From a virus (taxonomy: Duplodnaviria; Caudoviricetes), in IMG/VR virus record IMGVR_UViG_3300037510_000086, positions 1-58,253 of that record: a stretch of 58,253 nucleotides of DNA. One strand, written 5' to 3'. The position numbers were made by a program, and so were the translations under genes. How positions within the stretch are numbered: the first letter of the stretch is position 1; every line of letters begins with the position of its first letter. This document shows positions 2,787 through 57,812 of this stretch, piece by piece. The notes beneath the pieces are model-generated. The model saw only the letters and a list, made by a program, of their open reading frames with translations, searched no databases and had not been told where the DNA came from.

Positions 2787-2818
2787 TCGGCCGCCATATC
2801 TGAAGGGAGGTTTCCCAC

Positions 2819-24558: not shown

Positions 24559-24901
24559 CGACAGCGCATACAACGTCGTCAAGAAGAGCGCCACGATCGT
24601 CTTTCCGGCACTGAGCGCTCTGTACATCGCGATAGCACAGATCTGGAATCTGGGACACGTCGACCAAGTTGTCGGAACGCTCACGGCAGTGAACACCTTC
24701 TTCGGGTTGATCATCCAGCTCTCGAAGAAGTCGTACTACGCGAGTAGTGCGCCGTACGTCGGGGAGATCCACGTAAAGAACGAAGGGGAACGGAAGGTGT
24801 TCTCTCTCGTTGTGGACGGAGACCCCGAGGAGCTTGAGAACATGAGCTCCGCCAACTTCAAGATCAACAGCGAAACGGGCGAGACGCCCATCGTTCAGTG
24901 A
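24551..24901 (+). CDS. Holin (Dp-1-like)
   Basis: MLSDSAYNVVK...PALSALYIAIAQIW; two TM segments. Confidence 0.75.
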   Translation: MLSDSAYNVVKKSATIVFPALSALYIAIAQIWNLGHVDQVVGTLTAVNTFFGLIIQLSKKSYYASSAPYVGEIHVKNEGERKVFSLVVDGDPEELENMSSANFKINSETGETPIVQ

Positions 24902-25284
24902 TGGTCTGGATACTTCTGGCTCATCTACTGGGCGACTACGTACTTCAGTCGGACTGGATGGCGAACGAGAAGACGAAGAAGTGGATTCCCGCGTGGGCTC
25001 ACGCGGTTATCTACGGTATTCCTTTCGTATTCATTACCCAGTCTACGATCGCTCTGTTCGTCATCGTAGTGACGCACGCAGTTATTGATCACTATCGTCT
25101 GGCTCGATACGTAGTGTGGGTAAAGAATTTCTTGGCCCCTCGATCTTGGTGGTACTCATGGTCTGAATGTAAGGCTACTGGATACCACGAGAGCAGGCCG
25201 CCTTGGATGACTGTCTGGCTGATGATCATCGCAGACAACACTTTGCATCTGATCATCAACGTCGTATCGGTACAATACCTGTGA
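24898..25284 (+). CDS. DUF3307-like membrane protein
   Basis: LLAHLLGDYVLQSDWMA, HAVIY, THAVIDH, DNTLH His/Asp motifs. Confidence 0.75.
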   Translation: MMVWILLAHLLGDYVLQSDWMANEKTKKWIPAWAHAVIYGIPFVFITQSTIALFVIVVTHAVIDHYRLARYVVWVKNFLAPRSWWYSWSECKATGYHESRPPWMTVWLMIIADNTLHLIINVVSVQYL

Positions 25285-25293
25285 TTCGTTGGG

Positions 25294-25324
25294 TCGCAAG
25301 AAAAACATCTGCTTAGATGAGACC
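25294..25324 (+). promoter_or_regulatory. 31-bp conserved element, copy 1 (putative phage-RNAP promoter)
   Basis: tcgcaagaaaaacatctgcttagatgagacc. Confidence 0.8.
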
Positions 25325-25342
25325 CTACGAAAGGAACACCAG

Positions 25343-25645
25343 ATGTACCGCTTCGAAAAGATCTTCAAGACCGACCCCTCCAAGCTGGAGGAGGAGCTCG
25401 CCGCCGTACTCGACTCGATGTCGAAGATGGATGACAAGACCAGCGAGGACTACGCCAAGCTCAACGACCAGTACAAGCAGCTGCATGCGCTGAAGGAAGC
25501 CGAAGTTTCCCACAAGCGCATCAGCCGCGATCAGATCGTTGCCGCCGCCGTACACCTCGCCGGGATCGTCGCCGTCATCAACTACGAGAAGATCCACGTG
25601 ATCTCCACCTCCGCCAAGACGATGGTCCTGAAGACTTTCAGGTAG
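25343..25645 (+). CDS. Small cassette protein with C-terminal hydrophobic segment
   Basis: AAAGGA RBS after element 1; ATG 25343. Confidence 0.8.
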   Translation: MYRFEKIFKTDPSKLEEELAAVLDSMSKMDDKTSEDYAKLNDQYKQLHALKEAEVSHKRISRDQIVAAAVHLAGIVAVINYEKIHVISTSAKTMVLKTFR

Positions 25646-25676
25646 ACATCCACCCTCCGACGTAAGTCAAAATGGG

Positions 25677-25720
25677 AAGCCATGTGAGAGCTAACACCTC
25701 TTACATGGCTTTTCGTTTTT
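25677..25720 (+). terminator. Intrinsic terminator
   Basis: aagccatgtgagag-ctaacac-ctcttacatggcttt followed by a T-rich tract. Confidence 0.8.
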
Positions 25721-25733
25721 TGCCTTTTGGTGG

Positions 25734-25764
25734 TCGCAGGGATTACACGCCTTTAAATGAGACC
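25734..25764 (+). promoter_or_regulatory. 31-bp element, copy 2
   Basis: tcgcagggattacacgcctttaaatgagacc. Confidence 0.8.
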
Positions 25765-25784
25765 CCTGCGAAAGGAACACCATC

Positions 25785-26009
25785 ATGTTCGTTATCGTGC
25801 CCAAGAACGACCCGCTCACCATCGTCGTGAAGGGTGACCGTTGGGACGCTCTCGGAACCCCTGGTTCCATCTATCACCAGAAGCTCTACAATCTGCTGGT
25901 GAGGATGGGCGGGATCAACGAGAGTGTCACAGACGGCACCTACCACTTCAACGTCGAGCGCGGACGCTTCTTCGTGGTTCGTGCGAAGCTGACCAAGGTA
26001 GAAAACTGA
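25785..26009 (+). CDS. Small cassette protein
   Basis: AAAGGA RBS; 74 aa. Confidence 0.8.
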   Translation: MFVIVPKNDPLTIVVKGDRWDALGTPGSIYHQKLYNLLVRMGGINESVTDGTYHFNVERGRFFVVRAKLTKVEN

Positions 26010-26019
26010 CCAGACCTCT

Positions 26020-26049
26020 AGCCCAAGCCCCTACATGGGGTTAGGGTTT
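26020..26049 (+). terminator. CCCC-TACAT-GGGG family terminator
   Basis: agcccaagcccctacatggggttagggttt. Confidence 0.7.
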
Positions 26050-26063
26050 AACTCTTTCGAAGG

Positions 26064-26094
26064 TCGCACGAAAAACAGCTGGTTTAGTGAGACC
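26064..26094 (+). promoter_or_regulatory. 31-bp element, copy 3
   Basis: tcgcacgaaaaacagctggtttagtgagacc. Confidence 0.8.
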
Positions 26095-26116
26095 TCTACG
26101 AAAGGAACTGACCGCA

Positions 26117-26380
26117 ATGCTCAAAGCGCTTGTTCGTTCACTGACGTTCTACGCTTTCTCAACCATCAACCTTATGTACGCCTACCGCGTCCTGAAGCGC
26201 GAAGTGACGAAGCTTGCCGAGACCGACAAGGCCGAGAACAAGTTCCACTACGTCGCCATCAGGCTCGCGCGCGGTGACTACAACGAGTTGAATGCGGAAG
26301 CGCTCGAACGTATGCGATACGACTTCAAGTTCAACGACATCGCCGCCCAGTATCACGCAGACGCCTACAAGAAGGACTGA
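26117..26380 (+). CDS. Small cassette protein with N-terminal hydrophobic segment
   Basis: AAAGGA RBS; ATG 26117. Confidence 0.8.
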   Translation: MLKALVRSLTFYAFSTINLMYAYRVLKREVTKLAETDKAENKFHYVAIRLARGDYNELNAEALERMRYDFKFNDIAAQYHADAYKKD

Positions 26381-26390
26381 CAGCAGTCAG

Positions 26391-26423
26391 AAGACCTAGG
26401 GCCCTACACGGGCTTTAGGTTTT
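26391..26423 (+). terminator. Terminator hairpin
   Basis: aagacctagggccc-tacac-gggctttaggtttt. Confidence 0.75.
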
Positions 26424-26428
26424 GCCTT

Positions 26429-26459
26429 TCGCGTAGAATACATGGGTTTAAATGAGACC
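26429..26459 (+). promoter_or_regulatory. 31-bp element, copy 4
   Basis: tcgcgtagaatacatgggtttaaatgagacc. Confidence 0.8.
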
Positions 26460-26480
26460 ACTACGAAAGGACCCTCAGCC

Positions 26481-26735
26481 ATGAAGGACTACGACCCCCG
26501 CGACCCGTTCGACCGGCTCATGGCAGCTACTGAGTTCACCCAGAACACCAAAGACTTCAACGAAAAGATGGACGCAATCCGGAAGCAGCAGGCGAAAGCC
26601 CGCGCTGAGGAGGACGCCCGCTTCGAACGAAGGATGCTGGTGCGAAAGGTTGTGAGGCTCGGTCTGCTGACCACTGCCGCCGTTCTGGCCACCAAGGCCA
26701 TCCGGAATGCTCAGAAGGAACCCGAAGAAAGCTGA
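26481..26735 (+). CDS. Small cassette protein (coiled coil plus C-terminal hydrophobic helix)
   Basis: AAAGGA RBS; ATG 26481; followed by hairpin tgaatccc/gggattca at 26749-26770. Confidence 0.8.
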   Translation: MKDYDPRDPFDRLMAATEFTQNTKDFNEKMDAIRKQQAKARAEEDARFERRMLVRKVVRLGLLTTAAVLATKAIRNAQKEPEES

Positions 26736-26780
26736 CCTCAACAGCCTCTGAATCCCCCACAAGGGATTCATGCTTTGTCT

Positions 26781-26811
26781 TCGCATGGATTACACGGGTT
26801 AATATGAGACC
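26781..26811 (+). promoter_or_regulatory. 31-bp element, copy 5
   Basis: tcgcatggattacacgggttaatatgagacc. Confidence 0.8.
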
Positions 26812-26831
26812 CCTACTAGATTGGACCCGCC

Positions 26832-27074
26832 ATGTTGAACCGATTCGCGATTCAGACCCGGCTCGTCAAGAACCCCAAGAAGAAGACTGTCTCCGAGAAT
26901 GACACCATGGCAGAAGCCGTTGGCGAATCCTCCGCACGACTCGTGAACGAGTTGGCGAAGGACTTCGTCAAGTACGCTGCCGGTGCCATCATCGGAGTGA
27001 TCGTCATCTCCACGGCCACTGACACGCTGAGGCAGATCGCCGTCAAGAAGACCAAGAGCGCCGACAACGAGTAA
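26832..27074 (+). CDS. Small cassette membrane protein
   Basis: YAAGAIIGVIVISTA segment; followed by hairpin cccc-gcaa-ggggttagggtt at 27082-27111. Confidence 0.8.
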   Translation: MLNRFAIQTRLVKNPKKKTVSENDTMAEAVGESSARLVNELAKDFVKYAAGAIIGVIVISTATDTLRQIAVKKTKSADNE

Positions 27075-27136
27075 CCACCTCAACCCCCGACCCCGCAAGG
27101 GGTTAGGGTTTAGCGTTCAAAATGGGAAGTGATTCT

Positions 27137-27253
27137 GTGAAAGCGCTACCGTACTATCTCGTGATCCTGGGGTTTCTCTCTTTGGTAGTCGGTGAATTCG
27201 CCTGGGCACTTTCCTTCTTCATAATAGCTTTCGCAACACGAGAGGGTTCGTAA
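27137..27253 (+). CDS. 38-aa hydrophobic peptide (below ORF-track cutoff)
   Basis: GTG start; KALPYYLVILGFLSLVVGEFAWALSFFIIAF; stop overlaps next ATG. Confidence 0.55.
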   Translation: MKALPYYLVILGFLSLVVGEFAWALSFFIIAFATREGS

Positions 27254-27384
27254 TGGAAAGAAGCAAGACTTGGTTCGTGGCGATGTGTTTCATCGTCGTC
27301 GGAATCGTTCTGCTTGTGAACGGCTGGTTCTTCACCGGGGCGATGCTCCTCCTTCTGGGGTGCGTGTTGAAGCTGGCTGACTGA
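27253..27384 (+). CDS. 43-aa two-helix membrane peptide
   Basis: MERSKTWFVAMCFIVVGIVLLVNGWFFTGAMLLLLG; GAGGG RBS. Confidence 0.6.
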   Translation: MERSKTWFVAMCFIVVGIVLLVNGWFFTGAMLLLLGCVLKLAD

Positions 27385-27389
27385 GAAGG

Positions 27390-27420
27390 TCGCACGAAAA
27401 ACACGCGTTAATATGAGACC
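27390..27420 (+). promoter_or_regulatory. 31-bp element, copy 6
   Basis: tcgcacgaaaaacacgcgttaatatgagacc. Confidence 0.8.
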
Positions 27421-27440
27421 TCTATCGATTGGACATCACC

Positions 27441-27638
27441 ATGCTCAAGAAGAACTCCACCCCCGAAAACACCATCCTCGACGATGACGCTCGCCGTGCT
27501 CACGCACAGAAGCAGCTCTTCCGCTCGGTCGCAACCGCCGTTGCGATCAAGGTAGGCGTGACTGTCGCTGTTGCCATCGCAGCGAAGGCCATCGTCAGGA
27601 AGCTGGAAGCGGGAACGGAAGACTCCTCCGAGAACTGA
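27441..27638 (+). CDS. Small cassette membrane protein
   Basis: VATAVAIKVGVTVAVAIAAKAIV; ATG 27441. Confidence 0.8.
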   Translation: MLKKNSTPENTILDDDARRAHAQKQLFRSVATAVAIKVGVTVAVAIAAKAIVRKLEAGTEDSSEN

Positions 27639-27656
27639 CATCCACCGCAACATCTC

Positions 27657-27688
27657 AGACCCTACCCCTACATGGGGTTAGGGTTTTT
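27657..27688 (+). terminator. CCCC-TACAT-GGGG family terminator
   Basis: agaccctacccctacatggggttagggttttt. Confidence 0.8.
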
Positions 27689-27706
27689 CTTTTGGCTGGA
27701 GGTGTG

Positions 27707-27925
27707 ATGTTCGGCCGACCCAAGGAATACCACTTCGTTCTTACTATCGAGGCTTCTACGCAGGACGGAGTGACGCACCAATTTCAGCGGAACAATGTGA
27801 TGAAGTGGTCGTCGACTGAATATTGTGCCTTGATGCATCTCACAACCGAGTTGGCATCTAGACATAATCTTCGGCCCGAATCCATAATCATCTTGTTCTG
27901 GTCGTTCAAGAAAAACAAACCCTGA
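27707..27925 (+). CDS. Hypothetical protein
   Basis: GGAGG RBS before ATG 27707. Confidence 0.6.
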   Translation: MFGRPKEYHFVLTIEASTQDGVTHQFQRNNVMKWSSTEYCALMHLTTELASRHNLRPESIIILFWSFKKNKP

Positions 27926-27967
27926 AATTTCCCGCGGGGAATTTTCCAGAAAACTTTTGGAGGAATC

Positions 27968-28096
27968 ATGCGCAGCGACGTCAAGACCCTTCTGTTCTTC
28001 ATCTTCCTCATCGTTGGATCGTATTTGATCCTCACGGGCTCGTTCATCATCGGGCTGATCTTGATCATGCTGGCGGTGGTCATACCGGCGGTCTAA
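27968..28096 (+). CDS. 42-aa two-helix membrane peptide (resembles 27253..27384)
   Basis: GGAGG RBS; MRSDVKTLLFFIFLIVGSYLILTGSFIIGLILIMLAVVIPAV. Confidence 0.65.
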   Translation: MRSDVKTLLFFIFLIVGSYLILTGSFIIGLILIMLAVVIPAV

Positions 28097-28110
28097 TCCA
28101 GCCACAGGGG

Positions 28111-28141
28111 TCGCACGAAAAACATGTCTTAGTATGAGACC
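28111..28141 (+). promoter_or_regulatory. 31-bp element, copy 7
   Basis: tcgcacgaaaaacatgtcttagtatgagacc. Confidence 0.8.
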
Positions 28142-28164
28142 CCTACTATGGATTGGAACCCACC

Positions 28165-28428
28165 ATGTCCGAGAAGACCGCCTCTACCCCCGAGACCACC
28201 AAGCCCTCCAAGCTCTCCGTCAAACTGAACAGCCTCAAGCCGTCCAACATCGACAACGAGAAGAAGGAAGCCGCCGTCCGACGCATCAAGTTCGCAACCG
28301 CGTACACCCTTGCGTTCGTCGCCGGAGCCCTGACCACCGTTGCCGTGATGAACGCCAAGAACCTTCACGACGCCGAGACCGAGGAGACCGCTGAGGTCGA
28401 GGAGACCGAGGAGACCACCGAAGACTGA
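28165..28428 (+). CDS. Small cassette membrane protein with acidic tail
   Basis: FATAYTLAFVAGALTTVAV; E/T-rich C-terminus. Confidence 0.8.
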   Translation: MSEKTASTPETTKPSKLSVKLNSLKPSNIDNEKKEAAVRRIKFATAYTLAFVAGALTTVAVMNAKNLHDAETEETAEVEETEETTED

Positions 28429-28449
28429 TATTCCACCAAACCGGTATCA

Positions 28450-28479
28450 GGCCCTGACCCCTACATGGGGTTAGGGTTT
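28450..28479 (+). terminator. CCCC-TACAT-GGGG family terminator
   Basis: ggccctgacccctacatggggttagggttt. Confidence 0.75.
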
Positions 28480-28509
28480 CGCTTTTCGGATCGAGAGATG
28501 GAGTTTTCC

Positions 28510-29140
28510 ATGTCCAAGGAAATCGAGAAGAGCAACAAGAAGCGCACGGTTCTGGTCACGCTGGGGACCCTCGCGGCCCTCGTCGGGCTGATCAAATTCA
28601 TCATCCGGATCGCCAACGGCGAAGACACTCGCTGGGAGAACTGATCGTGGCCGAGGGCGACGAAAAGATCATCACCATCCGCTTCAAGAAGCCGGAATTC
28701 TGGGACAAGATCAAGGAGCAATGGGACGAGAACCCCATGCTCGTGATCGCGGTGGGTACAGCTGCCCTCACCGCCACGGGCAAGCTCATCGATGCTGTCG
28801 CCAGCATTCCGAGCAAGCGCGCGTACGCCAAGCGCATGAACAAGCGGGGGGACGAGAAGTGAGTGCGAAGATCATCACCCAGGAGGGGACTCCGGTGGAT
28901 GGTTGTCCGGAAGAGAACGAAGAGCCCACGTTGGCGGAAGATCTCCGAGCCCTCGCCGAGGACGTCAACGAGGGTCTGGTGGGCTTCCGCAAGTTCCGCA
29001 ACAGCGCGATCCTCAAGATCGGTATCGTCGCCGTGGCCATCAAGGTGGTCGGAGTGGTCGGTCAGATCATCATCGAGAACCAGCGTTTGAAGGCGGCTCG
29101 CCAGGAACGCCAGGAAGAGCGCGACCAGAACGAAGCGTAA
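28510..29140 (+). CDS. Three small single-TM proteins (28510..28644, 28647..28862, 28859..29140)
   Basis: Closely spaced or overlapping ORFs, each with one hydrophobic segment. Confidence 0.65.
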
Positions 29141-29152
29141 TCATCGCCCAGC

Positions 29153-29186
29153 GGGGCCCATATTCACGATGGATGTGGGCCCCTTT
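29153..29186 (+). terminator. Hairpin / terminator upstream of the TerD gene
   Basis: ggggcccatattc-acgat-ggatgtgggcccc followed by ttt. Confidence 0.65.
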
Positions 29187-29218
29187 CGCTGCAACACTTC
29201 ACAGACAAGGAATTCAAA

Positions 29219-29890
29219 ATGGGTATCACCTTCCGCAAGGGTGTCGACTCTCCGCTCGACGGCGTGAACCGACTGATGTTCGGCGCGGGCTGGGACCGCA
29301 AGACCAAGAAGCAGTCCGGCTGGGCCCGCAAGCTGGCCGTGAAGACCGGCGGGAAGATCAACGTTGGTGGTGGCGAGAAGGACATCGACCTGGACCTCGC
29401 GCTGATCCTGTACCGCGACGGCGAGCCGAAGCGCATCGTCATCGGCCACAACATGGACCCCGTCAACGGCGCGGCAGTGCACTCCGGTGACAACCAGACC
29501 GGCGAGGGCGACGGCGACGACGAGACGATCACGTTGGACCTGCTCCGCCTGCCCGCCTGGGCGACCGAGTGGGCCGTCGCGGTCTTCGCCTACAAGATGG
29601 GTACCAACTTCGACCAGGCCCAGAACGTCTCGCTCAACGTCTACGACGCCAGCGGCTCCGGGGAGCCCGTGCTTTTCGACGAGCTGATGCCTACCCTCGG
29701 CTCCGGCGCGACGGCTTGCGTCATCGCCAGCGGCAAGCGCAACCGCAACGTGTCGGGAGACCCGATCGACGGCTGGACCACCACGCTGGTCGACAAGTCC
29801 GGCAAGCTCGCCATGCAGGGCGACGACAACGCGATACTGGCGTTCGCTCGTAGTAACGCGGGAATCCGCCGTCCCGGCTCCGTCCTCTGA
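29219..29890 (+). CDS. TerD-family stress protein
   Basis: GAGWD, DIDLDLAL, VHSGDNQTGEGDGDDETITLDL, NFDQ TerD signature. Confidence 0.88.
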   Translation: MGITFRKGVDSPLDGVNRLMFGAGWDRKTKKQSGWARKLAVKTGGKINVGGGEKDIDLDLALILYRDGEPKRIVIGHNMDPVNGAAVHSGDNQTGEGDGDDETITLDLLRLPAWATEWAVAVFAYKMGTNFDQAQNVSLNVYDASGSGEPVLFDELMPTLGSGATACVIASGKRNRNVSGDPIDGWTTTLVDKSGKLAMQGDDNAILAFARSNAGIRRPGSVL

Positions 29891-30003
29891 CGCCATGGTT
29901 CCCCGTCCAGACAACGGGTGTACCTGCGACGGGGGACCGTACACCCACGGTCCAAAGGGCAGAGACGAGGTTCTCGCCCAGCTCAAAATGAGAAGAGAAA
30001 AAG

Positions 30004-30198
30004 ATGAGCCTCGCCCTCCAGTTCGCCAGACCGGTCGAACCGGAACCCGACATATCTGAGCTGATGGTCTACGACCCCGAGCGTCAGATGAACGTCTTCA
30101 AGGACGGCAGCGGCTTGGTCATCGACGACCCGGACACGCTGATCAAGTTTGGCACGACCACCTCGACTGCCGGGTCCAAGACCCACTTCGATGACTGA
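30004..30198 (+). CDS. ATP-grasp-modified RiPP (graspetide) precursor-like peptide
   Basis: Leader ALQFARP...YDPERQMNV...DG and Thr/Ser/Asp core GTTTSTAGSKTHFDD match actinobacterial ATP-grasp target peptides (recalled family). Confidence 0.75.
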   Translation: MSLALQFARPVEPEPDISELMVYDPERQMNVFKDGSGLVIDDPDTLIKFGTTTSTAGSKTHFDD

Positions 30199-30207
30199 GG
30201 AGCCATC

Positions 30208-30294
30208 ATGAACTTCTTCGGACACATGCTCTCCGGCCTCGTCGGAGGAATGGTGGCCTTACTGATCGAGCACTACGTCAATCACAAGCGGTAG
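30208..30294 (+). CDS. 28-aa hydrophobic peptide
   Basis: GAGGAG RBS; MNFFGHMLSGLVGGMVALLIEHYVNHKR. Confidence 0.55.
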   Translation: MNFFGHMLSGLVGGMVALLIEHYVNHKR

Positions 30295-30295
30295 A

Positions 30296-30326
30296 TCGCA
30301 CCAAAAACACGCACTTAGATGAGACC
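30296..30326 (+). promoter_or_regulatory. 31-bp element, copy 8 (followed by a hairpin, no ORF)
   Basis: tcgcaccaaaaacacgcacttagatgagacc. Confidence 0.8.
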
Positions 30327-30367
30327 CATATTCCGTGAACACCACACGGGGTATGGGTTTACCTTTT
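30324..30367 (+). ncRNA. Candidate ~45-nt hairpin RNA or immediate terminator
   Basis: acccatattccgtg-aacacca-cacggggtatgggt (14 bp, 2 G-U pairs) followed by ttacctttt. Confidence 0.5.
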
Positions 30368-30387
30368 AACCAACAAGGAGAAGCACA

Positions 30388-30975
30388 ATGAGCAACAGCA
30401 CGCGCCCCAGTCTCGCCGGACCCGTCATCGCCCTGTGCTTCGCCCTTGTGGCGGTCGCCTTGGCCTCCATCAGCGGATGCGGGACTTCTCTCGCGGTCGA
30501 CAGCAAGCCCAGGACCGTCTCACTCATTGGCGAGTGGCGGCAGATCAACCCCAACTCGGGCGGATGGATGACGGCGTCCATATCCGGTGAGTCCGTCCAG
30601 GTGAACCTGAGAGGGCGTGGCTCCAGTTCCGTGTACTGGATGGGTACGTTCGACACCCACCCGCGGAAGTCCAACAAGTTCAAGGTCGTCTCGATCGGCG
30701 ACCCCGACGCCGCGAAGTCGATGATCACCGCCGACGAGTCCAAGACGAAGACGTTCACATACGACCACGGCGTTCTCTCGTTCAAGTTCTCGGCGCTGGG
30801 GACCTCGGCCACCATCCACATGACCAAGGCGAAGTCGACGCATATTCCGACCGCCACCCCCACGACTCACCGGCCCTCGTACAAGACTCCCCAGACCAAC
30901 AAGAAGCCGACCACCAAGGCCAAGGCGAGGACCGGGGTCAAGGCGCCCGCCAAGATCTCGACCCGCAAGAAGTAG
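30388..30975 (+). CDS. Probable lipoprotein
   Basis: AAGGAG RBS; signal peptide ending LASISG-C; K/T/P-rich tail. Confidence 0.7.
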   Translation: MSNSTRPSLAGPVIALCFALVAVALASISGCGTSLAVDSKPRTVSLIGEWRQINPNSGGWMTASISGESVQVNLRGRGSSSVYWMGTFDTHPRKSNKFKVVSIGDPDAAKSMITADESKTKTFTYDHGVLSFKFSALGTSATIHMTKAKSTHIPTATPTTHRPSYKTPQTNKKPTTKAKARTGVKAPAKISTRKK

Positions 30976-30982
30976 GTACACC

Positions 30983-31777
30983 ATGAAGTTCAAGCTGGGA
31001 ATACTGGCCAAGCAGGCGAAGAAGGCCATCGCTGACAACTCCCCCGCGCTTCTGACTGCGCTCGGTGTGACCGGTACGCTTACGGTCGCATATCTGACGG
31101 GCAAGGCTTCGTTCAAGGCGGCGGAGATCCTCGCCAAGGAAGCCAAGCAGCGCCGCAAGGACGGCGACCCGGAGATGGACAACTGGGACAAGGCCGATCT
31201 GGTCTGGCGTGAGTTCATCCCCGCCGCCGGTATCGCCGCCCTGACCGTCTCTGCCATCATCGGCGCAAACCACATCAGCACGAAGCGCGTCGCTGCCTTC
31301 GCCTCGGCATATTCCATGGCCGAGAAGGGGTTTTCCCAGTACAAGGAAAAGGTGCTGGAGAAGGTCGGCCCGAAGAAGGAAGCGGAGATCAAGGACGAGG
31401 TCGCCAAGCAGCAGATCAGCGACCACCAGTACTCCAAGTCACCGATCATCATCACCGGACACGGAGACCACCTCTGCTTCGACGCATATTCGGGGCGGTA
31501 CTTCCAGAGCGACATCGAGCGCGTTCGCTCGGCGGTCAACGATATCCGGGACCAGATCCACAGTCAGGATTCCGCGACCCTGTCCGACTACTGGGGGCTT
31601 ATCGGTCTGGAGTCCACCCAGGTGTCCGACGACATCGGGTGGACCACGGATCAGAAGCTCGACGTTCACTACACGTCGGACCTCACCAAGGAAGGTGTGC
31701 CGTGCTTGATCGTCACCTTCCTCTCAACGCCGAAGCCGCTCTGCGGTCCCATCGGCTCGACCTACAGCGCGTATTGA
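30983..31777 (+). CDS. Membrane protein (DUF6353-like), paralog of 36487..37431
   Basis: NSPALLTALGVTG...KA N-terminus; ATLSDYWGLIG...IGW C-terminal domain. Confidence 0.7.
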   Translation: MKFKLGILAKQAKKAIADNSPALLTALGVTGTLTVAYLTGKASFKAAEILAKEAKQRRKDGDPEMDNWDKADLVWREFIPAAGIAALTVSAIIGANHISTKRVAAFASAYSMAEKGFSQYKEKVLEKVGPKKEAEIKDEVAKQQISDHQYSKSPIIITGHGDHLCFDAYSGRYFQSDIERVRSAVNDIRDQIHSQDSATLSDYWGLIGLESTQVSDDIGWTTDQKLDVHYTSDLTKEGVPCLIVTFLSTPKPLCGPIGSTYSAY

Positions 31778-31979
31778 AGAGCTGCGTTCCACTACGGGAC
31801 GCTTGATCTTGAGGACGCATTCGGGAGCTGAGTTCATGCAGGACGCCTGTACTGACTCGTCGGGCAAGCCCGATTGCCTATGGCGAGTCTCATGCAACAT
31901 CACAAGGGCGTCCTGCCCGAAAATGGACGCCCTTCTTCAAAAGCTCGATACCGATATTTCACGAGAGGCAGAACACATC

Positions 31980-32360
31980 ATGTCGAACCCCAAGAACACC
32001 GCCGCCACCCCGAAGACCGTCAAGGAGACCGTCGAAGCGAAGTCCGGCGAGGAAGCCGTCATCCCCGCGCAGACCACCGAGGTCAAGCCCGGCTTCGCCG
32101 ACGGCATCAAGGTCGAGGACCCCAAGGACGCCCAGTCCGAGGAGAAGACCACCCTGGTGAAGCGCGCCAAGGCCGCCGCCGAGAAGCTCAAGTCCAACAA
32201 GAAGGCCATGTTCTTCCTCGCGGGCGCTGCGGTCGTCATCGGCCTGACCATCAAGAACAACCGCAAGGCCGTCAAGGTCGAGGTCGTGGACCCGGAGGAC
32301 ACCTCTGTCGAGGGTGTCGACGACGTCACCGGCCCGGACGAGACCGACGACTCTCTCTGA
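31980..32360 (+). CDS. Single-TM protein
   Basis: GAGAGG upstream of ATG 31980; AMFFLAGAAVVIGLTI. Confidence 0.7.
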   Translation: MSNPKNTAATPKTVKETVEAKSGEEAVIPAQTTEVKPGFADGIKVEDPKDAQSEEKTTLVKRAKAAAEKLKSNKKAMFFLAGAAVVIGLTIKNNRKAVKVEVVDPEDTSVEGVDDVTGPDETDDSL

Positions 32361-32400
32361 GTCACACACCAACCTGAAGCGCGCGAGAAAGAAGTAAGAA

Positions 32401-32934
32401 GTGGCGATATCCGAGACCATCACGTACCAGGACATCGACGGGAAGACGGTCACCAAGGAGTGGTGGTTCTCCCTCGACAAGGCCGAGCTCGCCGAGATGA
32501 AGCTCCGTCATGAGGGTCCTGGTAAGGGCACTCTGGAGGAGTACCTCGACCGGATCATCAAGGAGGACGACAACAACAAGATTCTGGACAACTTCCAGAT
32601 GATCCTCCAGAAGTCCGTCGCAGTCCGGGTGGACAACTACCTCAAGAAGACCCCCGAGACCGTCATGGAGTTCACAGGCGGCGGGGCCTACGAGGCCATG
32701 TTCATGAAGATGCTGCGCGAAGCCGAGTACGCGGCCAAGCTCATCAACGGCATCCTCCCGAAGGACATGGTTGAGGCGGTCGCCAAGAAGGACGCCGAGA
32801 AGTCCCAGCACACCGACGAGGAGCTTCTCGCCATGAGCGATGAGGAGTTCTTCTCAGTGGCCGGTGGCCAGAACCCCATGCGTTGGGACCCGCGTTTCCT
32901 GACGCTGGCGGCTCGGCGCAAGACCGCGGCATGA
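32401..32934 (+). CDS. Conserved hypothetical phage protein
   Basis: ETITYQDIDG...WFSLDKAEL; phage-like codon usage. Confidence 0.75.
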   Translation: MAISETITYQDIDGKTVTKEWWFSLDKAELAEMKLRHEGPGKGTLEEYLDRIIKEDDNNKILDNFQMILQKSVAVRVDNYLKKTPETVMEFTGGGAYEAMFMKMLREAEYAAKLINGILPKDMVEAVAKKDAEKSQHTDEELLAMSDEEFFSVAGGQNPMRWDPRFLTLAARRKTAA

Positions 32935-33053
32935 TCGACCCGGAGAAGATGTTCGACGAGATGAAGAAGTTCGGCGTTCTGATGATCATCGGACCCGCCC
33001 TCATTCTCGTCGGATATCTTCTTACCTGGGGAGTGAAACTCCTCATCAAGTGA
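32931..33053 (+). CDS. 40-aa membrane peptide
   Basis: ATGA overlap; FGVLMIIGPALILVGYLLTWGV. Confidence 0.6.
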   Translation: MIDPEKMFDEMKKFGVLMIIGPALILVGYLLTWGVKLLIK

Positions 33054-33230
33054 ATGATTGGGGGATCAGCATTGGGTTCTGCCTATAGGGAACAATCCCT
33101 TCGTAGGGGTCTCCAGGGCCGTCCGGATGCTAGATCTTAAACGACAACCGCAGCTCGCAGGCCGCTCCTTCCGTAGCGAGGACAAGGAAACTGCGCCCCA
33201 GTCATATCCCCTTCGAGTAATTGGAGAACC

Positions 33231-33710
33231 GTGAACAGCAAAGGCAAGATAGCCGTCGTCTTCGCACTGATGTTCGGCACGCTCGCAGTAGCCGTACCTC
33301 AGGCGGAGGCGACCCCATCTCTGCGCATCGCCGCCATGGGAAGCGCCAACACTCAGAAGGGTGCCCGCTATGTCTGGGGCGCCGAGGGTGGTTATTCCAA
33401 GGGTTACGACTGCTCGGGCCTGACTTACTGGTCCTACAAGCAACACGGTAAGACCCTGCCCCGCACCGCTCAGGGCCAGTACAACAGCGCGAAGAAGATC
33501 GCCCCGCACGACCGCAAGCCGGGTGACCTCGTGTTCATACATGACGCTCGGGGTTATGTATTCCACGTGGGCATCCTGACGCGGATCACCAGCGGACACG
33601 GTTGGATGGTCAACGCCAACTCCGGTTCCTACCGTGGGCGCAAGGTCGTCGAGGCGCCAGTCTACGAGTACACCCCCGGCTCGCCGTATGCCACTTACGG
33701 GCGGTACTGA
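33231..33710 (+). CDS. Secreted NlpC/P60 peptidoglycan endopeptidase
   Basis: Signal peptide ending AEA; YVWGA, YDCSGLT, LPRTA, PGDLVF, HVGI. Confidence 0.9.
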   Translation: MNSKGKIAVVFALMFGTLAVAVPQAEATPSLRIAAMGSANTQKGARYVWGAEGGYSKGYDCSGLTYWSYKQHGKTLPRTAQGQYNSAKKIAPHDRKPGDLVFIHDARGYVFHVGILTRITSGHGWMVNANSGSYRGRKVVEAPVYEYTPGSPYATYGRY

Positions 33711-33711
33711 C

Positions 33712-34265
33712 ATGGAAGACCGTACGTACCAGTCGCACACCGACGACCACGGCGAGCATATTCTCGTGTTCGACGGGGATGGCGTCTTCGTTCGTAAGGT
33801 CTTCGTCCCGCGCTCCGAGTTTCGTCCAACCGCCTTCGTATGGATCTTGGACGACCGATTCCGCACGCTCTTCCAGGCGAATTCCCACATCGCCTACAGG
33901 TGGTTGGAGGAGAACCCGGACCGAGTGCTGGCCAAGCAAGTCGGCGTAGGTAAGGACTTCCAGATCCTCTCGGTTTCCGAGTTCCAGGAGTTGTACGGAT
34001 GAAATCGATATGGGGGTCTGAACTAATGACCCTGCCCGACGAACTCGGATCGATCAAAGTCGGTTCGGAGTGGTGCTGGGAGCCCCTGAAATTGGAAAGC
34101 AGATGCTACATCAGAGTGAGTATGGTCGAGCGTAAGCTTGACGGTAACTGGTGGGTTCTCTGCACAGCTCTTACCGATGGCGGCGGGGTCAAGAGGGGTC
34201 AGTCCAACTGGAACCAGCTTTCTCGATTCGTCGAGGCTTCCGTTCTAATCAAACCCGGTTCCTGA
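33712..34265 (+). CDS. Two hypothetical proteins (33712..34002, 33999..34265)
   Basis: Coupled ORFs with ATGA overlap. Confidence 0.65.
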
Positions 34266-34281
34266 ACGGAGTCAGTAGGGG

Positions 34282-34312
34282 TCGCGTCAAAAACACGTGT
34301 TTAGATGAGACC
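34282..34312 (+). promoter_or_regulatory. 31-bp element, copy 9
   Basis: tcgcgtcaaaaacacgtgtttagatgagacc. Confidence 0.8.
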
Positions 34313-34336
34313 CCTACTGGATTGGACCCTACTCCT

Positions 34337-34483
34337 GTGAACAACACTCGCAAGAAGGATATCATCAAATTCTTTGTCGCTGGAGCTTTCGCCCTCGCCC
34401 TCGCGAAGGTTGAGAAGCTCATCGACAAGAAGGCCGATGAATACTTCCCTGACGAAGATTCCGATCAGGAAAAGAACGACTGA
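34337..34483 (+). CDS. 48-aa cassette membrane peptide
   Basis: GTG 34337; IIKFFVAGAFALALA; followed by CCCCTACATGGGG terminator at 34500-34527. Confidence 0.7.
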   Translation: MNNTRKKDIIKFFVAGAFALALAKVEKLIDKKADEYFPDEDSDQEKND

Positions 34484-34547
34484 CCCCTAACCTGTCTCCA
34501 CCCAACCCCTACATGGGGTTTGGGTTTAATTTTCTGATCGAGGTGTT

Positions 34548-35252
34548 ATGAACGAGGAAGAGTACCCCAGCAACAGCAAGTTCTCCCGTCCGAAGCCGTC
34601 GGTTCCGGTCGACCCGCCAAAGCCGTCTTCGACGGAGGAGCGACCCAAGGTCGAGAAGGCCATCGAGGGTGAGGCGGTCATCAAGCGGCGGTCCATCGGA
34701 AAGCGGCTCGCCACCATTTTCACCGGGGTCAGCCTCAGGGAAGTCGTGGACGACGCCATCGACCAGGCGATCATTCCTGGCATCAAGGGCCTCCTTCTGA
34801 GTGCGGGCGAACGTGCTCTCGATAAGGCTTTCGGGAACGGCGCAGGCGGACGGAGCATCCCGAATGCCGCCGCACGAACCATGGTCACCAATGTGGCCCA
34901 CGTTGCCTACAACAAGTTCTCCGCCCCGAATGCGGCCACCGTGCGACCCGGCCCTGCTCCGACCCAGGGTCCGATGGTGATGAGCCGCCGAGGGCAGGCC
35001 GTACACGACTTCGAGGAGATCGAGTTCCAGAACCGTGGGGACGCGAGCATAATCCTCAACCTGATGTACGACCGGCTCCAGGAGTACGGCTCCGTCTCGG
35101 TCGCCGAGTTCTACGGCTGGGCCGATATCCGAGGGAACTTCACCGACCAGAACTGGGGTTGGAAGGATCTCACGGGAGCTGGTCCGACGCGTAACAACCG
35201 CACGGGTATGTGGACTCTGAACCTCCCCATGCCCGTCGACCTGAACCGCTAG
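34548..35252 (+). CDS. Hypothetical protein with C-terminal GxVxxxEFY...GW domain
   Basis: GAGG RBS; LQEYGSVSVAEFYGWAD...WGW. Confidence 0.75.
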   Translation: MNEEEYPSNSKFSRPKPSVPVDPPKPSSTEERPKVEKAIEGEAVIKRRSIGKRLATIFTGVSLREVVDDAIDQAIIPGIKGLLLSAGERALDKAFGNGAGGRSIPNAAARTMVTNVAHVAYNKFSAPNAATVRPGPAPTQGPMVMSRRGQAVHDFEEIEFQNRGDASIILNLMYDRLQEYGSVSVAEFYGWADIRGNFTDQNWGWKDLTGAGPTRNNRTGMWTLNLPMPVDLNR

Positions 35253-35265
35253 GCACCCCACTGCC

Positions 35266-54470: not shown

Positions 54471-55047
54471 CGATCACGCCAAGCTCGAAGGCTCACACGC
54501 CTTTCTGAGCCCCTCGAATTACCACTGGCTCCGCTACGACCGGGAGAAGCTCCTCCAGCGTCTGGAGACCTCCAAGGCCGCTGCACGAGGCACTAGCCTC
54601 CACAAGCTAGCCGCCCATGCGATCTCTGAAGGTGTTCAGCTCATGCCTGACGGGTCAACACTCAGTCAGTACGTGAATGACGCCATCAAACATAGGATGG
54701 AGCCCGAAAGGACTCTGTTCTTCTCGATGGACTGCTACGGCACTGCGGACGCCATTGGGTTCGAGGTCTACGATCAGCCAGTCGGTGATGTGCTCGGCTA
54801 CCTTCGCATCTTCGATCTGAAGACCGGTGTGTCTCCGTGCTCTGTCGAGCAGCTGTACATCTACGCCGCTGTCTTCTGTCTCGAATATGAGTACATGCCC
54901 TACGAGATCGAAGGCGAGCTCCGTCTCTACCAGAACAACGACGTTCAGTGCTACAAGATTGAACTCGTTACTCTGGCTGAGATCATGAGCACCATCATGT
55001 CTCATCAGAGCATCATCGACGAGTACCGCCTGGGGGGTGGCGAATGA
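54439..55047 (+). CDS. PD-(D/E)XK Cas4/RecB-like exonuclease
   Basis: HAFLSPS, RGTSLH, GTADAI, IFDLKTG, QLYIYA. Confidence 0.8.
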   Translation: MRSVKLFKAYNDHAKLEGSHAFLSPSNYHWLRYDREKLLQRLETSKAAARGTSLHKLAAHAISEGVQLMPDGSTLSQYVNDAIKHRMEPERTLFFSMDCYGTADAIGFEVYDQPVGDVLGYLRIFDLKTGVSPCSVEQLYIYAAVFCLEYEYMPYEIEGELRLYQNNDVQCYKIELVTLAEIMSTIMSHQSIIDEYRLGGGE

Positions 55048-57812
55048 CGATCATCGAGGAAGACGACTACCTCGCTCACTACGGCATCCTTCGGAAGTCG
55101 GGGCGCTATCCGTGGGGTTCCGGCAAGGACGAGACCACACGAGCGCAGACGTTCCTCACTATGGTCGCTGACTGCCGCAAGAAGGGGCTGACGGACAAGG
55201 AGATCGCTCAGGGTTTCGGTATGACAACTACCGAACTCCGTGCGACCACCACCCTGGCAAACAATGCCAACTCGCGAGCCAAGATCGCTCAGGCCGAGAG
55301 GCTGAAGAAAAAGGGATGGTCGAATATGGCCATCGGCAGAGAGATGGGTATCGGAGAGTCTTCTGTCCGTGCCCTTCTTGAGCCTGGCCGTAAGGAGCGC
55401 AACGACATCCTGACAGCCACCGCTCAGATGCTTCGCGATGAGGTGGCCAAGAGCACATACATCGACGTCGGCAAGGGCGTTGAGCTCCACCGAGGTATCA
55501 GCGCTGAGAAGCTGAATGCTGCCGTCTCCGTTCTGAAGACCGAAGGATACGTCGTCCATAAGGTGCCCGTGCGACAGCTGGGTACTGGTAAGGACACGAA
55601 GGTCAAGGTTCTCTGTCCGCCCGGAACCACTTTCGGCGACGTCATGAAGAACCGTTCGGAGATCAAGCAGATCGTCCCGTACTCGACCGACCGCGGCCTC
55701 TCGTTCAACGACATCAAGCCGCCCATCTCGATTGACTCCAAGCGGGTCAAAGTTCGGTACGCCGATGAAGGCGGAACGCTTCGGGATGGTGTCATTCAGG
55801 TTCGCCCTGGTGTGAAGGACACATCTCTTGGTAACGCGACCTATGCTCAGGTTCGCGTCGCCGTCGACGGTAGTCACTACCTCAAGGGTATGGCTATGCG
55901 TGGGGACCCTAAGGACTTCCCGCCTGGCGTGGACCTGATCTTCAACACGAACAAGTCCAATACTGGTAACAAGCTCGACGCCATGAAGCCCATGGGTAAG
56001 GACCCAAAAGATCCGTTTGGCGCTACGATCGACCACCAGATCCAGGACACCGACTCTTTCGGGCGCAAGCATGTCACTTCGGTGATGAACATCGTCAATG
56101 CTGAAGGCCGATGGGATGAGTGGAACAGAACCCTCTCGTCTCAGATGCTTTCCAAGCAAAGTCAGGTTCTCGCCGCAAAGCAGCTCGGTCTCGTTCGTGA
56201 ACGAAAGCAGCGCGAGCTCGACGACATTATGTCGGTCACCAATCCTACCCTCAGGGAACACCTCCTCGAAAAATATGCAGAATCGACAGATGCCGCAGCT
56301 GTGCATCTGAAGGCTGCTGCTATGCCGAGGCAGGCAACCAAGGTAATTCTTCCCCTGACGAAGATCAGCGAGAATGAGGTTTACGCACCCACCTTCAAGA
56401 ACGGTGAGCGTGTAGTTCTCGTTCGTTTCCCTCATGGCGGAACGTTCGAGATCCCCGAACTCGTGGTCAACAACAGGGTGCCTGAGGGTAAGTCTGTCAT
56501 CGGGCCCAATGCTCGTGACGCTATCGGCATCCACCCCAAGGTCGCGGAGCGACTGTCCGGTGCGGACTTCGATGGCGACACTGTGTTGGTGATCCCGAAC
56601 AATGAGGGCCGGATCAAGAACAGCCCGCCTCTTGAGGGTCTTAAGGACTTCGACCCTAAGGTGTACAAGCTGCCTGAAGGTGCTCCTGTCATCAGTGCCC
56701 GTACCAAGGGTATTGAGATGGGTAAGGTGTCGAACCTCATCACCGACATGACCATTGGTGGTGCGCCGTTCCCTGAGATCGAGCGTGCTGTCAGACATTC
56801 CATGGTCGTGATCGATGCTGAGAAACACAAGCTCGACTACAAGCAGTCAGCCATCGACAACGGAATCTCGGCCCTCACAAAGAAGTACCAACGAAAGGGT
56901 GGTGGTGCATCCACTGTCATCTCCAACTCCGGGTCCAACGCCAAGATCGAAGTCCCTGAGCGCAAGCTCCGATCTGCCAAGGATGGCGGTCCTATCGACC
57001 GTGCTACTGGCAAGCTTGTCTATGTGCCTACGGGCAGGAAGACATCTGAGACCAAGATCGTTGACCCTGAAACGGGAAAGACAAAGTGGGTCGCTTCATA
57101 CAGGGTTCGCCCTGACACTCAGGTTGTGAAGCGTGATGGAGAACCTGTCACACGTGAAGCTCCTGTAATGGAGAAGGTGGCAAAGCTTGCGTCTACTGAC
57201 GATGCTCGCACCTTCATGTCGAAGAACCCGACACCCATCGAGAAGATCTATGCAGATCACTCGAACGCATTGAAGAGCATGGCCAACGAAGCACGAAAGG
57301 CCACGCTTGACATCAAGCCCATCGAACGCTCCCCTTCTGCGGCCCAGACCTACGCCAACGAAGTCAAGCGTCTCGATGCGGCGTTGAACCTGGCTCTCAT
57401 GAACGCCCCCCTCGAAAGGCAGGCCCAGATCATTGGGAATGCCATCTACCGCCAGAAGCTCCACGACAATCCGAACATGGATGAGGGAGACAAGAAGAAG
57501 GCGTCTTCGAAGGCTCTTGAGGAAGCTCGAATCAGGACCGGTGCGAACAAGCACAGGATCAAGATCTCTCCTCGTGAGTGGGAGGCAATCCAAGCAGGAG
57601 CCATCAGTCCTAGCAAACTGAAGGACATCCTGGACAACACCGATACAGACAAGCTCAAGGAACTGGCCATGCCTCGTGAGGCAGTGGTCCATGACCCGGC
57701 CATGCGGGCTCGTGGTGCTGACCTCATCCGACGTGGGTACACGCAGGCTGAGGTAGCCGATCACCTTGGGATCTCGGTGTCCACTCTAGTGTCCATGCTG
57801 AGTGGGAAGTGA
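55044..57812 (+). CDS. Putative single-chain two-barrel RNA polymerase with HTH domains and an N-terminal LAHYG tag
   Basis: LVRFPH, AIGIHP, RLSGADFDGD (DFDGD at 56565-56579); HTH-like segments GLTDKEIAQGFG, GWSNMAIGREMG, GYTQAEVADHLG. Confidence 0.75.
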   Translation: MTIIEEDDYLAHYGILRKSGRYPWGSGKDETTRAQTFLTMVADCRKKGLTDKEIAQGFGMTTTELRATTTLANNANSRAKIAQAERLKKKGWSNMAIGREMGIGESSVRALLEPGRKERNDILTATAQMLRDEVAKSTYIDVGKGVELHRGISAEKLNAAVSVLKTEGYVVHKVPVRQLGTGKDTKVKVLCPPGTTFGDVMKNRSEIKQIVPYSTDRGLSFNDIKPPISIDSKRVKVRYADEGGTLRDGVIQVRPGVKDTSLGNATYAQVRVAVDGSHYLKGMAMRGDPKDFPPGVDLIFNTNKSNTGNKLDAMKPMGKDPKDPFGATIDHQIQDTDSFGRKHVTSVMNIVNAEGRWDEWNRTLSSQMLSKQSQVLAAKQLGLVRERKQRELDDIMSVTNPTLREHLLEKYAESTDAAAVHLKAAAMPRQATKVILPLTKISENEVYAPTFKNGERVVLVRFPHGGTFEIPELVVNNRVPEGKSVIGPNARDAIGIHPKVAERLSGADFDGDTVLVIPNNEGRIKNSPPLEGLKDFDPKVYKLPEGAPVISARTKGIEMGKVSNLITDMTIGGAPFPEIERAVRHSMVVIDAEKHKLDYKQSAIDNGISALTKKYQRKGGGASTVISNSGSNAKIEVPERKLRSAKDGGPIDRATGKLVYVPTGRKTSETKIVDPETGKTKWVASYRVRPDTQVVKRDGEPVTREAPVMEKVAKLASTDDARTFMSKNPTPIEKIYADHSNALKSMANEARKATLDIKPIERSPSAAQTYANEVKRLDAALNLALMNAPLERQAQIIGNAIYRQKLHDNPNMDEGDKKKASSKALEEARIRTGANKHRIKISPREWEAIQAGAISPSKLKDILDNTDTDKLKELAMPREAVVHDPAMRARGADLIRRGYTQAEVADHLGISVSTLVSMLSGK

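Follow-up and report, generated by a model that had tools for sequence, protein, structure and literature searches.

Why does one copy of a promoter-like element in a phage genome run straight into a hairpin, when every other copy is followed by a small gene? The locus lies at positions 30,296 to 30,367 of IMG/VR record IMGVR_UViG_3300037510_000086, and the window is that whole virus record (58,253 bases, estimated complete). Judged by its sequence, the window is a complete, uncultured, cluster-BI-like Streptomyces phage. The element in question is copy 8 of nine. It is probably a derivative, lacking an open reading frame (ORF), of the phage's standard promoter-ORF-terminator mini-cassette, and it would now act as a terminator/promoter module. 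The site comprises the following features.

30296..30326, plus strand: copy 8 of the 31-nt promoter-like element, TCGCACCAAAAACACGCACTTAGATGAGACC (repeat families D2/D3/D7), with a -10-like hexamer TTAGAT at 30315-30320
30322..30360, plus strand: hairpin with a 14-bp core (30324-30337 / 30345-30358) and a loop at 30338-30344, from the fold, shuffles and repeat family D4
30359..30367, plus strand: T-rich tail TTACCTTTT, from the alignment of 10 terminators (A1)
30004..30198, plus strand: upstream gene for a 64-aa homolog of ClubPenguin gp43, the left syntenic anchor of the site; it resembles precursors of graspetides, which are ATP-grasp-modified ribosomally synthesized and post-translationally modified peptides (RiPPs)
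30208..30294, plus strand: 28-aa hydrophobic ORF, read from the sequence, with no internal stops and a Shine-Dalgarno (SD)-like GAGGAG at 30197-30202
30375..30975, plus strand: SD AAGGAG (30375-30380) and lipoprotein gene (ATG 30388) from the ORF list, the right syntenic anchor

Copy 8 matches the pattern TCGC-N4-A-N2-ACA-N5-T-N4-T-GAGACC exactly, and its N positions fit the consensus except for the weaker hexamer TTAGAT, which is also present in copies 1 and 9. Its upstream edge abuts the stop codon of the 28-aa ORF, the final gene of the upstream transcription unit, and the hairpin unit is placed 29 nt past that stop codon, where a terminator of that transcription unit would be expected. Copy 8 lacks the conserved CCTAC... 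leader, the SD, and any start codon 21-33 nt past GAGACC. ATATTCCGTG, which is the hairpin arm, comes right after GAGACCC. Reading of the sequence between copy 8 and AAGGAG (30375-30380) or ATG 30388 finds no start codon with a ribosome-binding site (RBS). The next start codon is 67 nt downstream of copy 8 and belongs to the lipoprotein gene, the first of the downstream operon, whose product has a signal peptide ending in a lipobox-like SISGC.

The stem core consists of the 5′ arm ACCCATATTCCGTG (30324-30337), the 3′ arm CACGGGGTATGGGT (30345-30358), and the 7-nt loop AACACCA. Its 14 pairs include two U-G pairs (31-51 and 32-50), and AGA/UUU pairs (A-U, G-U, A-U) lengthen the hairpin to 16 bp in the energy-minimum fold. 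The 5′ arm begins within the promoter's GAGACC, of which the ACC opens the core stem. The RNA fold of 30320-30372 has this 16-bp stem at -24.3 kcal/mol, when shuffles reach -11.43 +/- 2.55 (z -5.05, 0/200 as stable). The tail plus T30358 gives TTTACCTTTT, a sequence of the TTTnnCTTTT type, as in other cassette terminators. The sequence read and the fold confirm an earlier sequence-only reading, in which copy 8 had neither RBS nor ORF and ran into a 14-bp hairpin whose stem is opened by the final ACC of the element, holds two G-U pairs, and is followed by a T-rich tail.

The nine full element copies of the window are on the plus strand and start at 25294, 25734, 26064, 26429, 26781, 27390, 28111, 30296, and 34282. 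The consensus from 138 instances is TCGCAnnAAAaACAnGgcCTATAATGAGACC. With up to 3 mismatches allowed, the 20-nt core of copy 8 has 3 matches, when compared to 0.01 expected. Each of the other eight copies ends in GAGACC and leads into the conserved CCTAC... leader, an SD, a small ORF that starts 22-31 nt on, and a T-tailed hairpin. The small cassette ORFs mostly carry one hydrophobic segment and would be single-pass membrane proteins. Their arrangement is as follows.

25294..28486, plus strand: array of the first seven promoter copies, with a small ORF 22-31 nt after each and then a terminator hairpin
34282..34534, plus strand: ninth cassette, with the promoter at 34282, a small ORF, and a terminator at 34499-34534

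The array has family hairpins at 26021, 26394, 27083, 27658, and 28451, and different hairpins at 25671 and 26749. The terminator repeat family, of the type ACCCnAnCCCC-TACA-GGGGTTAGGGT and then TTTnnCTTTT, occurs at 26021, 26394, 27083, 27658, 28451, and 34499. The hairpin of copy 8 belongs to repeat family D4 with 64% identity in its 3′ half, and has the invariant GGGG, T, and TTT columns of A1. T41-T43 and T49 are invariant among the ten terminators and T48 is nearly so. Viewed as a generic intrinsic terminator, the unit has a stem of -21.4 to -24.3 kcal/mol, but its tail, with 7 T in 10 positions, is broken by ACC and the consensus scan does not list it. An isolated GAGACCCCTACGAAGGGA at 33096-33113 on the minus strand equals the 3′ half of the element plus leader, inverted and without the upstream promoter part.

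A scan of IMG/VR with the element pattern matched at least 172 stretches. The instance set is made up of 217-218 unique elements among the matches listed (window, IMG/VR loci, and phage-collection locus L001), and the counts of instances given here and below refer to this set. About seven of the 217 are evident chance matches, judged by eye (L032, L052, L084, L103, L115, L166, L039). An ORF starts within 70 nt of GAGACC in 203/217, mostly at 21-33 nt. Copy 8 folds most stably of the 218 over the 60 nt that follow the hexamer (-25.4 kcal/mol), and a terminator-like structure before the next gene is found in just copy 8 and, loosely, in L106 among the 217. The exact hairpin core has 0 matches in IMG/VR. 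The metagenome scan for TGAGACCCATA-N10-40-TATGGGTTT gives 40 loci, with 0 having the promoter element upstream, and yields no further alleles; both matches of the scan for a predicted promoter-canonical terminator fusion are unrelated. A description of the element or its cassettes was not found in the literature searched, including the accessible text of PMC9671017, 10.1101/842583, PMC7302621, PMC5513430, and PMC11536984, a search that does not cover subscription journals or bioRxiv supplements.

The relatives show what the site holds elsewhere. Near matches in the phage collection are Streptomyces phages in 9/9 records, and the top match is ClubPenguin (80.4% identity over 76% of a 3-kb query), which its genome announcement, in the accessible part, assigns to cluster BI (PMC9671017). 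The gp43-like protein of the window is 87.5% identical to ClubPenguin gp43 and has homologs in two IMG/VR loci, L002 and L003. Between gp43 and gp45, which is annotated as 'lipoprotein', ClubPenguin has the promoter element, then the gene for gp44 (a 63-aa protein with a single hydrophobic segment), and a canonical terminator. L002, with a gp43-like protein 73% identical, has the promoter, a 60-aa ORF, a terminator, and the lipoprotein gene. L003 (55% identical) has an extra tiny ORF, then the promoter, a 66-aa ORF, a canonical terminator, and the lipoprotein gene; the tiny ORF holds the same position as the 28-aa ORF of the window and is unrelated to it. A filled cassette is therefore present in 3/3 relatives that keep both flanking genes, and the sequence-only reading's suggestion to look for an ORF at this site in relatives is answered in the affirmative. 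The site ORFs of the relatives are homologous (L002 vs gp44, 38% identity, E 9e-15). A tblastn search with the three ORFs against the window gives no match (best E 1.4), so the gene was lost rather than moved.

The terminators point in the same direction. The L002 terminator, ACCATATCCCGC / AACCAAAA / GCGGGGTATGGT / TTTCTGTTT, is of the same type as the window hairpin, and the two pair up in the ten-terminator alignment. At the fusion junction the window has GAGACC|CATAT, to be compared with cGACCAC|CATAT at the base of the L002 terminator; (A)GACCC opens several canonical terminators. A terminator lies 20-30 nt upstream of the lipoprotein RBS in 4/4 genomes (the window and the three syntenic relatives), and no further element copy lies between that terminator and the lipoprotein gene in 4/4. 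Other candidate comparators were rejected. Scarif, tried for polarity, keeps the gp43-like gene and has neither a lipoprotein gene nor a cassette downstream, its cassette sitting upstream of the gp43-like gene. The loci L004 and L005 have a non-phage-like context, with a precursor and an ATP-grasp maturase. In a distant blastn search of 29990-30990 against isolate phages, no phage but ClubPenguin spans the site, and no lipoprotein relatives were confirmed in IMG/VR.

These comparisons suggest how the unit arose. The ancestor would have held a gene for a single-pass membrane protein of about 60-66 aa (ClubPenguin gp44 family) between the promoter and an ATATyCCGy...rCGGGGTAT-type terminator. 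A deletion would then have taken out the leader, RBS, and gene, with its ends at the GACC(C) common to the promoter 3′ edge (GAGACCC) and the base of the terminator 5′ arm, and this short identity may have caused the deletion. The terminator stem would now begin with bases that are also the last ones of the promoter. Transcripts from upstream would carry the whole 14-16-bp stem abutting UUUACCUUUU and be terminated or attenuated; in the relatives, upstream transcripts would likewise end at the cassette terminator. The promoter itself would still fire. Its transcripts may stop at about 30361-30368, giving a hairpin RNA of about 35-47 nt, which is most likely a by-product, or they may read through and feed the lipoprotein operon at a reduced level with a 5′-terminal stem-loop. 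Such a 5′-terminal stem-loop is expected to make read-through transcripts more stable.

The outcome would depend on the start site. A start at 30321-30324 would give the full 14-16-bp stem (-21.4 to -24.3 kcal/mol), probably efficient termination, and an RNA of about 40-47 nt. A start at 30327-30328, which a sigma-70-type -10 at 30315-30320 predicts, would give weaker termination, and the unit would be a terminator for upstream and a promoter for downstream transcription. Since a terminator precedes the lipoprotein RBS with no other element copy in between, the operon would be fed by read-through, with the cassette promoter as the nearest promoter. The promoter-terminator order is kept after the deletion, so the supply of the operon is probably little changed. 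The sequence-only reading's proposal of an attenuator for the lipoprotein operon fits this conserved layout, seen in the window and in 3/3 syntenic relatives.

Cassettes without an ORF exist elsewhere. Among the 14 ORF-less instances, seven are real-looking (L012, L026, L029, L063, L079, L086, L164), two are coding with atypical leaders (L065, L068), and five are chance matches; in L106 and L077 an ORF follows a structured leader. All of the cases folded (8/8: window, L026, L012, L029, L063, L086, L106, L077) start their closing helix at nt 1-3 of GAGACC, and in 7/8 the partner of that helix lies directly before a T-containing tail. L029 ends in ACCTTTT, like the window. A 5′-3′ closing helix was not seen in L079 and L164. 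The complementary stretch of L026 and L012 is 3 nt longer and enters the hexamer (AAT/ATT), and the closing helices were for this reason rejected as proof of a start at G.

The contents of these cassettes vary. Downstream of the element, L026 (from 401, plus strand) has four tandem hairpin units of about 27 nt (GGACGCCCGTTAAGGGTATCC...) within a perfect closing helix of 13-16 bp, and L063 (from 401, minus strand) has two successive ORF-less cassettes with two copies of an internal motif in each. From their sequences, the contents of L026 and L063 look like repeat-bearing small RNAs. L012 (from 724, plus strand), L086 (minus strand), and L164 (from 301, plus strand) are ORF-less cassettes with tRNA-like pieces, namely a T-arm-like GGTTCGATTCC or GGTTAGAATCC beside an anticodon-arm-like hairpin. 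Four AT-rich, apparently unrelated metagenome contigs (L178, L184, L191, L214) contain ...TATAATGAGACCCATAATTTC...GAAATTATGGGTTTTCT, then an SD and a start codon. Their TATAAT-GAGACCC-hairpin-T-tail layout without TCGC...ACA may be a coincidence or a wider motif.

Two polymerases are candidate readers of the element. A sigma-70 scan of 24500-36000 gives 3 sites (3.4 expected from shuffles), none of them at the nine elements. The IMG/VR hexamer consensus is TATAAT, with no -35 at 16-18 nt and with TCGCA 14 nt upstream of the hexamer, and conservation of the element extends through GAGACC and weakly past it. A T7-type RNA polymerase (RNAP) was rejected as the reader, as there is no Pfam match among the 24 large ORFs scanned, and it was replaced by a YonO-type candidate.

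55044..57812, plus strand: gene for a 922-aa homolog of the YonO/crAss-type (RdRP-like, two-barrel) RNAP (phrog_4291, 1281 bits, aa 4-921), the last large gene of the genome

The match to phrog_4291, labelled 'RNA-dependent RNA polymerase', is full-length. The protein has DFDGD at aa 508-512 (the DxDGD catalytic loop motif), weak N-terminal helix-turn-helix (HTH) matches at aa 41-130, and a C-terminal HTH_23 at aa 886-915. In the accessible text of 10.1101/842583, members of this family from BI-type and related phages are identified as RNAP homologs of the YonO/crAss-like type, with an HTH domain at each end. All three element-bearing records of 90% completeness or more (3/3) encode homologs with 51-56% identity; of two further records, both fragments, one shows a partial match and the other no match. 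As of 2017, the YonO promoter was still to be defined, according to the part of PMC5467207 that is accessible. Host RNAP and phage RNAP are roughly equally likely as readers of the element.

A second allele of the site is available. Four DNA runs contain parts of the stretch; one, X1, may be the source of the window, and two, X3 and X4, do not cover 30236-30605. No RNA run turned up among the runs containing the stretch, and the two metatranscriptomes listed share almost none of its sequence words, which counts neither for nor against transcription. X2 is an independent soil metagenome from another study and contains a 1,761-nt contig (depth 6.4) that spans 30208-31400 with 19 substitutions and no gap. 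As the contig is gapless over the site, the gene-less fusion is present in a relative of about 98% identity with a locally diverged allele. Within 30261-30373 lie 15/19 of the differences. Two fall in the 28-aa ORF, both at third codon positions, as are 3/4 of the coding differences to the right of the site. The promoter has four, all at positions variable among copies, and 16/16 pattern-specified promoter positions are unchanged. The stem has two changes, U-G to C-G at 30332 and C-G to C-A at 30349, and an unchanged base. The loop and the proximal TTT are also unchanged, and seven differences fall in 30363-30373. The sequence-only reading had taken the two G-U pairs as a sign of RNA-level selection. 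This is weakly founded: X2 turns one G-U into G-C, but also the neighbouring C-G into a C-A mismatch. A patch recombined in from a more remote relative best accounts for the divergence contrast along X2, in which case the donor would also have the fused form. X2 contigs break at 30203-30208, precisely in the gap that separates the gp43-like gene from the ATG of the 28-aa ORF. This break and the focus of divergence in 30261-30373 suggest a strain-level recombination hot spot around the cassette.

Several points weigh against a gene-deleted cassette that still works as a module. The deletion is deduced from relatives at no more than 73% gp43 protein identity (L002, L003) or about 80% DNA identity (ClubPenguin), and a closer ORF-bearing genome than these three was not found. 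The hairpin is missed by the simple terminator scan, a scan that recovered just 2/6 canonical family hairpins (27658 and 28451). If the stem extends into the TTT, the tail left has 4 T in 8. A start at 30327/30328, about 7 nt past the hexamer, leaves 10-11 pairs (-12.4 to -14.3 kcal/mol) with 2-3 G before the U-tract, so self-termination could be poor. We infer promoter activity, start site, termination efficiency, and the polymerase reading the element from the sequence. The intergenic stretch of X2 is the most diverged of its contig (13/93 vs 4/1013 coding, P = 8e-12). Its hexamer, TTAACT, has a C at a position with C in 0/138 instances, its C-A mismatch moves the fold from -24.3 to -20.2 kcal/mol, and it lacks the distal T-run. 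Changes at pattern-specified or stem positions (2/41) do not differ significantly from the 13% segment rate (P = 0.077), and neither do promoter plus hairpin from spacer (P = 0.10). The signal of constraint on the fusion from X2 is thus weak and mixed.

A neutral deletion scar is a rather unlikely explanation. On this view, loss of the ORF left behind a promoter and hairpin that are tolerated, perhaps still firing and terminating, unselected and drifting toward loss. The hexamer C, the new stem mismatch, and the weakened T-tract of X2 agree with such drift, as do an intergenic stretch whose divergence is about 35 times that of the neighbouring coding sequence and the rarity of such fusions, of which the 217 instances hold only copy 8 and L106 and the search for the predicted canonical form holds 0 relevant of 2 matches. 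The fusion is, however, indel-free in two alleles that differ by 13% over 30261-30373, with the 16 pattern-specified promoter positions, the stem base, and the proximal TTT unchanged, and the downstream operon has no other element copy and relies on the promoter and terminator of the site in all syntenic relatives. An ancestral empty slot is highly improbable. It would be a promoter-terminator 'landing pad' never filled in the lineage of the window, into which the relatives inserted a gp44-family ORF. Cassette content does vary among relatives at this and neighbouring sites, as in Scarif, and PeSL-type units of other phages are known, from the accessible text of PMC2839356, to mediate insertion as well as deletion. 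Yet 3/3 syntenic relatives have homologous ORFs despite deep divergence, which favours presence in the common ancestor, the leader and RBS (CCTAC...GGA) of the other eight copies are absent here as a deletion predicts, and no targeted-insertion mechanism or enzyme is seen. The sequence-only reading's 'empty insertion site' therefore stands in that relatives carry an ORF exactly here, but the polarity favours a filled cassette that lost its gene.

The remaining alternative makes copy 8 a dedicated small-RNA gene, and it is improbable in each of its parts. The element would be the promoter of the YonO-like RNAP with a start at or next to the G of GAGACC, doubtfully yielding an abundant, nearly blunt 16-bp hairpin RNA of about 40-47 nt with a 5′-triphosphate. 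That this RNA has a function of its own, as a decoy, polymerase sink, or regulator, and is the minimal member of a promoter-RNA-terminator cassette class is likewise doubtful, and there is small likelihood of a wider 'panhandle' RNA class in which the RNA 5′ end forms the 5′ arm of its own terminator. The ORF-less cassettes behind the element in IMG/VR phages, with their closing helix in 8/8 and T-tail partner in 7/8, the shared ACCTTTT end of L029, the phage-encoded YonO/crAss-type RNAP with HTH regions and its homologs in the three near-complete element-bearing records, and the lack of a sigma-70-type -35 at proper spacing are in its favour. Against it, the hairpin is homologous to an ordinary terminator after the L002 protein gene and has no RNA-specific part beyond the terminator. 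Moreover, L079 and L164 lack the closing helix, and the helices of L026 and L012 reach the hexamer, so the start site is not fixed by them. The X2 loop is unchanged, yet about 37% of 7-nt stretches would be (0.867 to the 7th power). A search for antisense targets of the hairpin of at least 11 nt elsewhere in the window found none, the longest exact complement being 10 nt (2 sites), at chance level. Rfam 15 (E up to 1, 25000-35000) gives just one chance miRNA match at 34262-34328, and ARAGORN finds no tRNA or tmRNA in the window. An RNA of about 45 nt, as proposed by the sequence-only reading, would be expected from a firing promoter and a terminating hairpin, but it has no antisense target of that length in the phage, and nothing supports a role as 'antitoxin mimic' or 'primer'.

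The gene-deleted cassette resembles known systems in part. In the accessible text of Arbiol et al. 2010 (PMC2839356), PeSL cassettes of the T4-type phages RB49 and phi1 consist of a promoter and a stem-loop downstream of the -10, forming one terminator/promoter module. As described there, PeSLs are, like copy 8, short intergenic units with a repeated strong promoter and a stem-loop ending upstream transcription, they lie in a plastic region of small accessory ORFs, and the unit marks gene gain or loss between close relatives. PeSL promoters, in the same text, match the sigma-70 -35/-10 consensus, whereas the window element has no -35 at proper spacing and is perhaps read by a phage RNAP. The two have no sequence relationship and belong to different phage groups and hosts; the resemblance is functional only. 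The window phage usually has its promoter and terminator as two distinct motifs on either side of the ORF, and copy 8 is the one place where they are fused.

The moron of lambdoid phages is said to have been defined by Juhala, Hendrix and colleagues in 2000 as a gene with its own promoter and terminator between two phage genes. Filled cassettes, in the window as in its relatives, are similar in being autonomous promoter-gene-terminator units with small accessory genes. In contrast, copy 8 is geneless, with no protein-coding gene between 30326 and the hairpin, and so is not itself a moron, and the cassettes form arrays with one promoter and one terminator family instead of one-off insertions. 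Like an intrinsic terminator or leader attenuator, copy 8 has a G+C-containing stem and then a T-rich tract, in the interval between a stop codon and the following operon. It differs in that the 5′ arm of its hairpin overlaps the promoter edge and its U-tract is interrupted (UUUACCUUUU), and no antiterminator alternative structure or leader peptide, as in an attenuator, is seen at copy 8. When compared to the ORF-less IMG/VR cassettes, copy 8 has the same start signal and stop hairpin, but its cargo is nil and its RNA is the terminator hairpin alone. By analogy, the copy 8 unit would work like a PeSL or an emptied moron while belonging to neither class.

The genes around the site and in the rest of the window, all on the plus strand where examined, have some features of their own. 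The gp43-like gene at 30004-30198 matches TIGR04186, 'putative ATP-grasp-modified RiPP' (E 1.3e-08, 34.8 bits vs a cut-off of 25), and there are 0 matches to an ATP-grasp maturase in the phage. In L004, at 2501-3598, a TIGR04186-type homolog stands beside an ATP-grasp peptide maturase (TIGR04187, E 1.9e-95, below the curated cut-off). As far as sequence similarity goes, the phage gene is an orphan of the graspetide-precursor-like kind, and ClubPenguin, Scarif, L002, and L003 have it too. A TerD-domain gene lies at 29219-29890 (Pfam E 1.8e-15) and is present in several BI phages too. Two DUF6353 paralogs lie at 30983-31777, directly after the lipoprotein gene, and at 36487-37431. The ORF at 873-1904 contains 9-nt periodic CAAGGT/CAGGGA repeats (1284-1418) that encode collagen-like Gly-X-Y.

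For the phage, copy 8 is probably a regulatory remnant with modest consequences. It shows, in a clean natural case, a promoter-gene-terminator mini-cassette that has lost its cargo. Its stretch of about 75 bp with promoter, start site, and terminator is a compact handle on polymerase choice, transcription start, and hairpin obedience, and if the small-RNA explanation were true, the element would define a promoter for the YonO-like RNAP class. The few bases common to the promoter edge and the terminator arm may serve as a deletion junction, which bears on accessory-gene turnover in actinophages.

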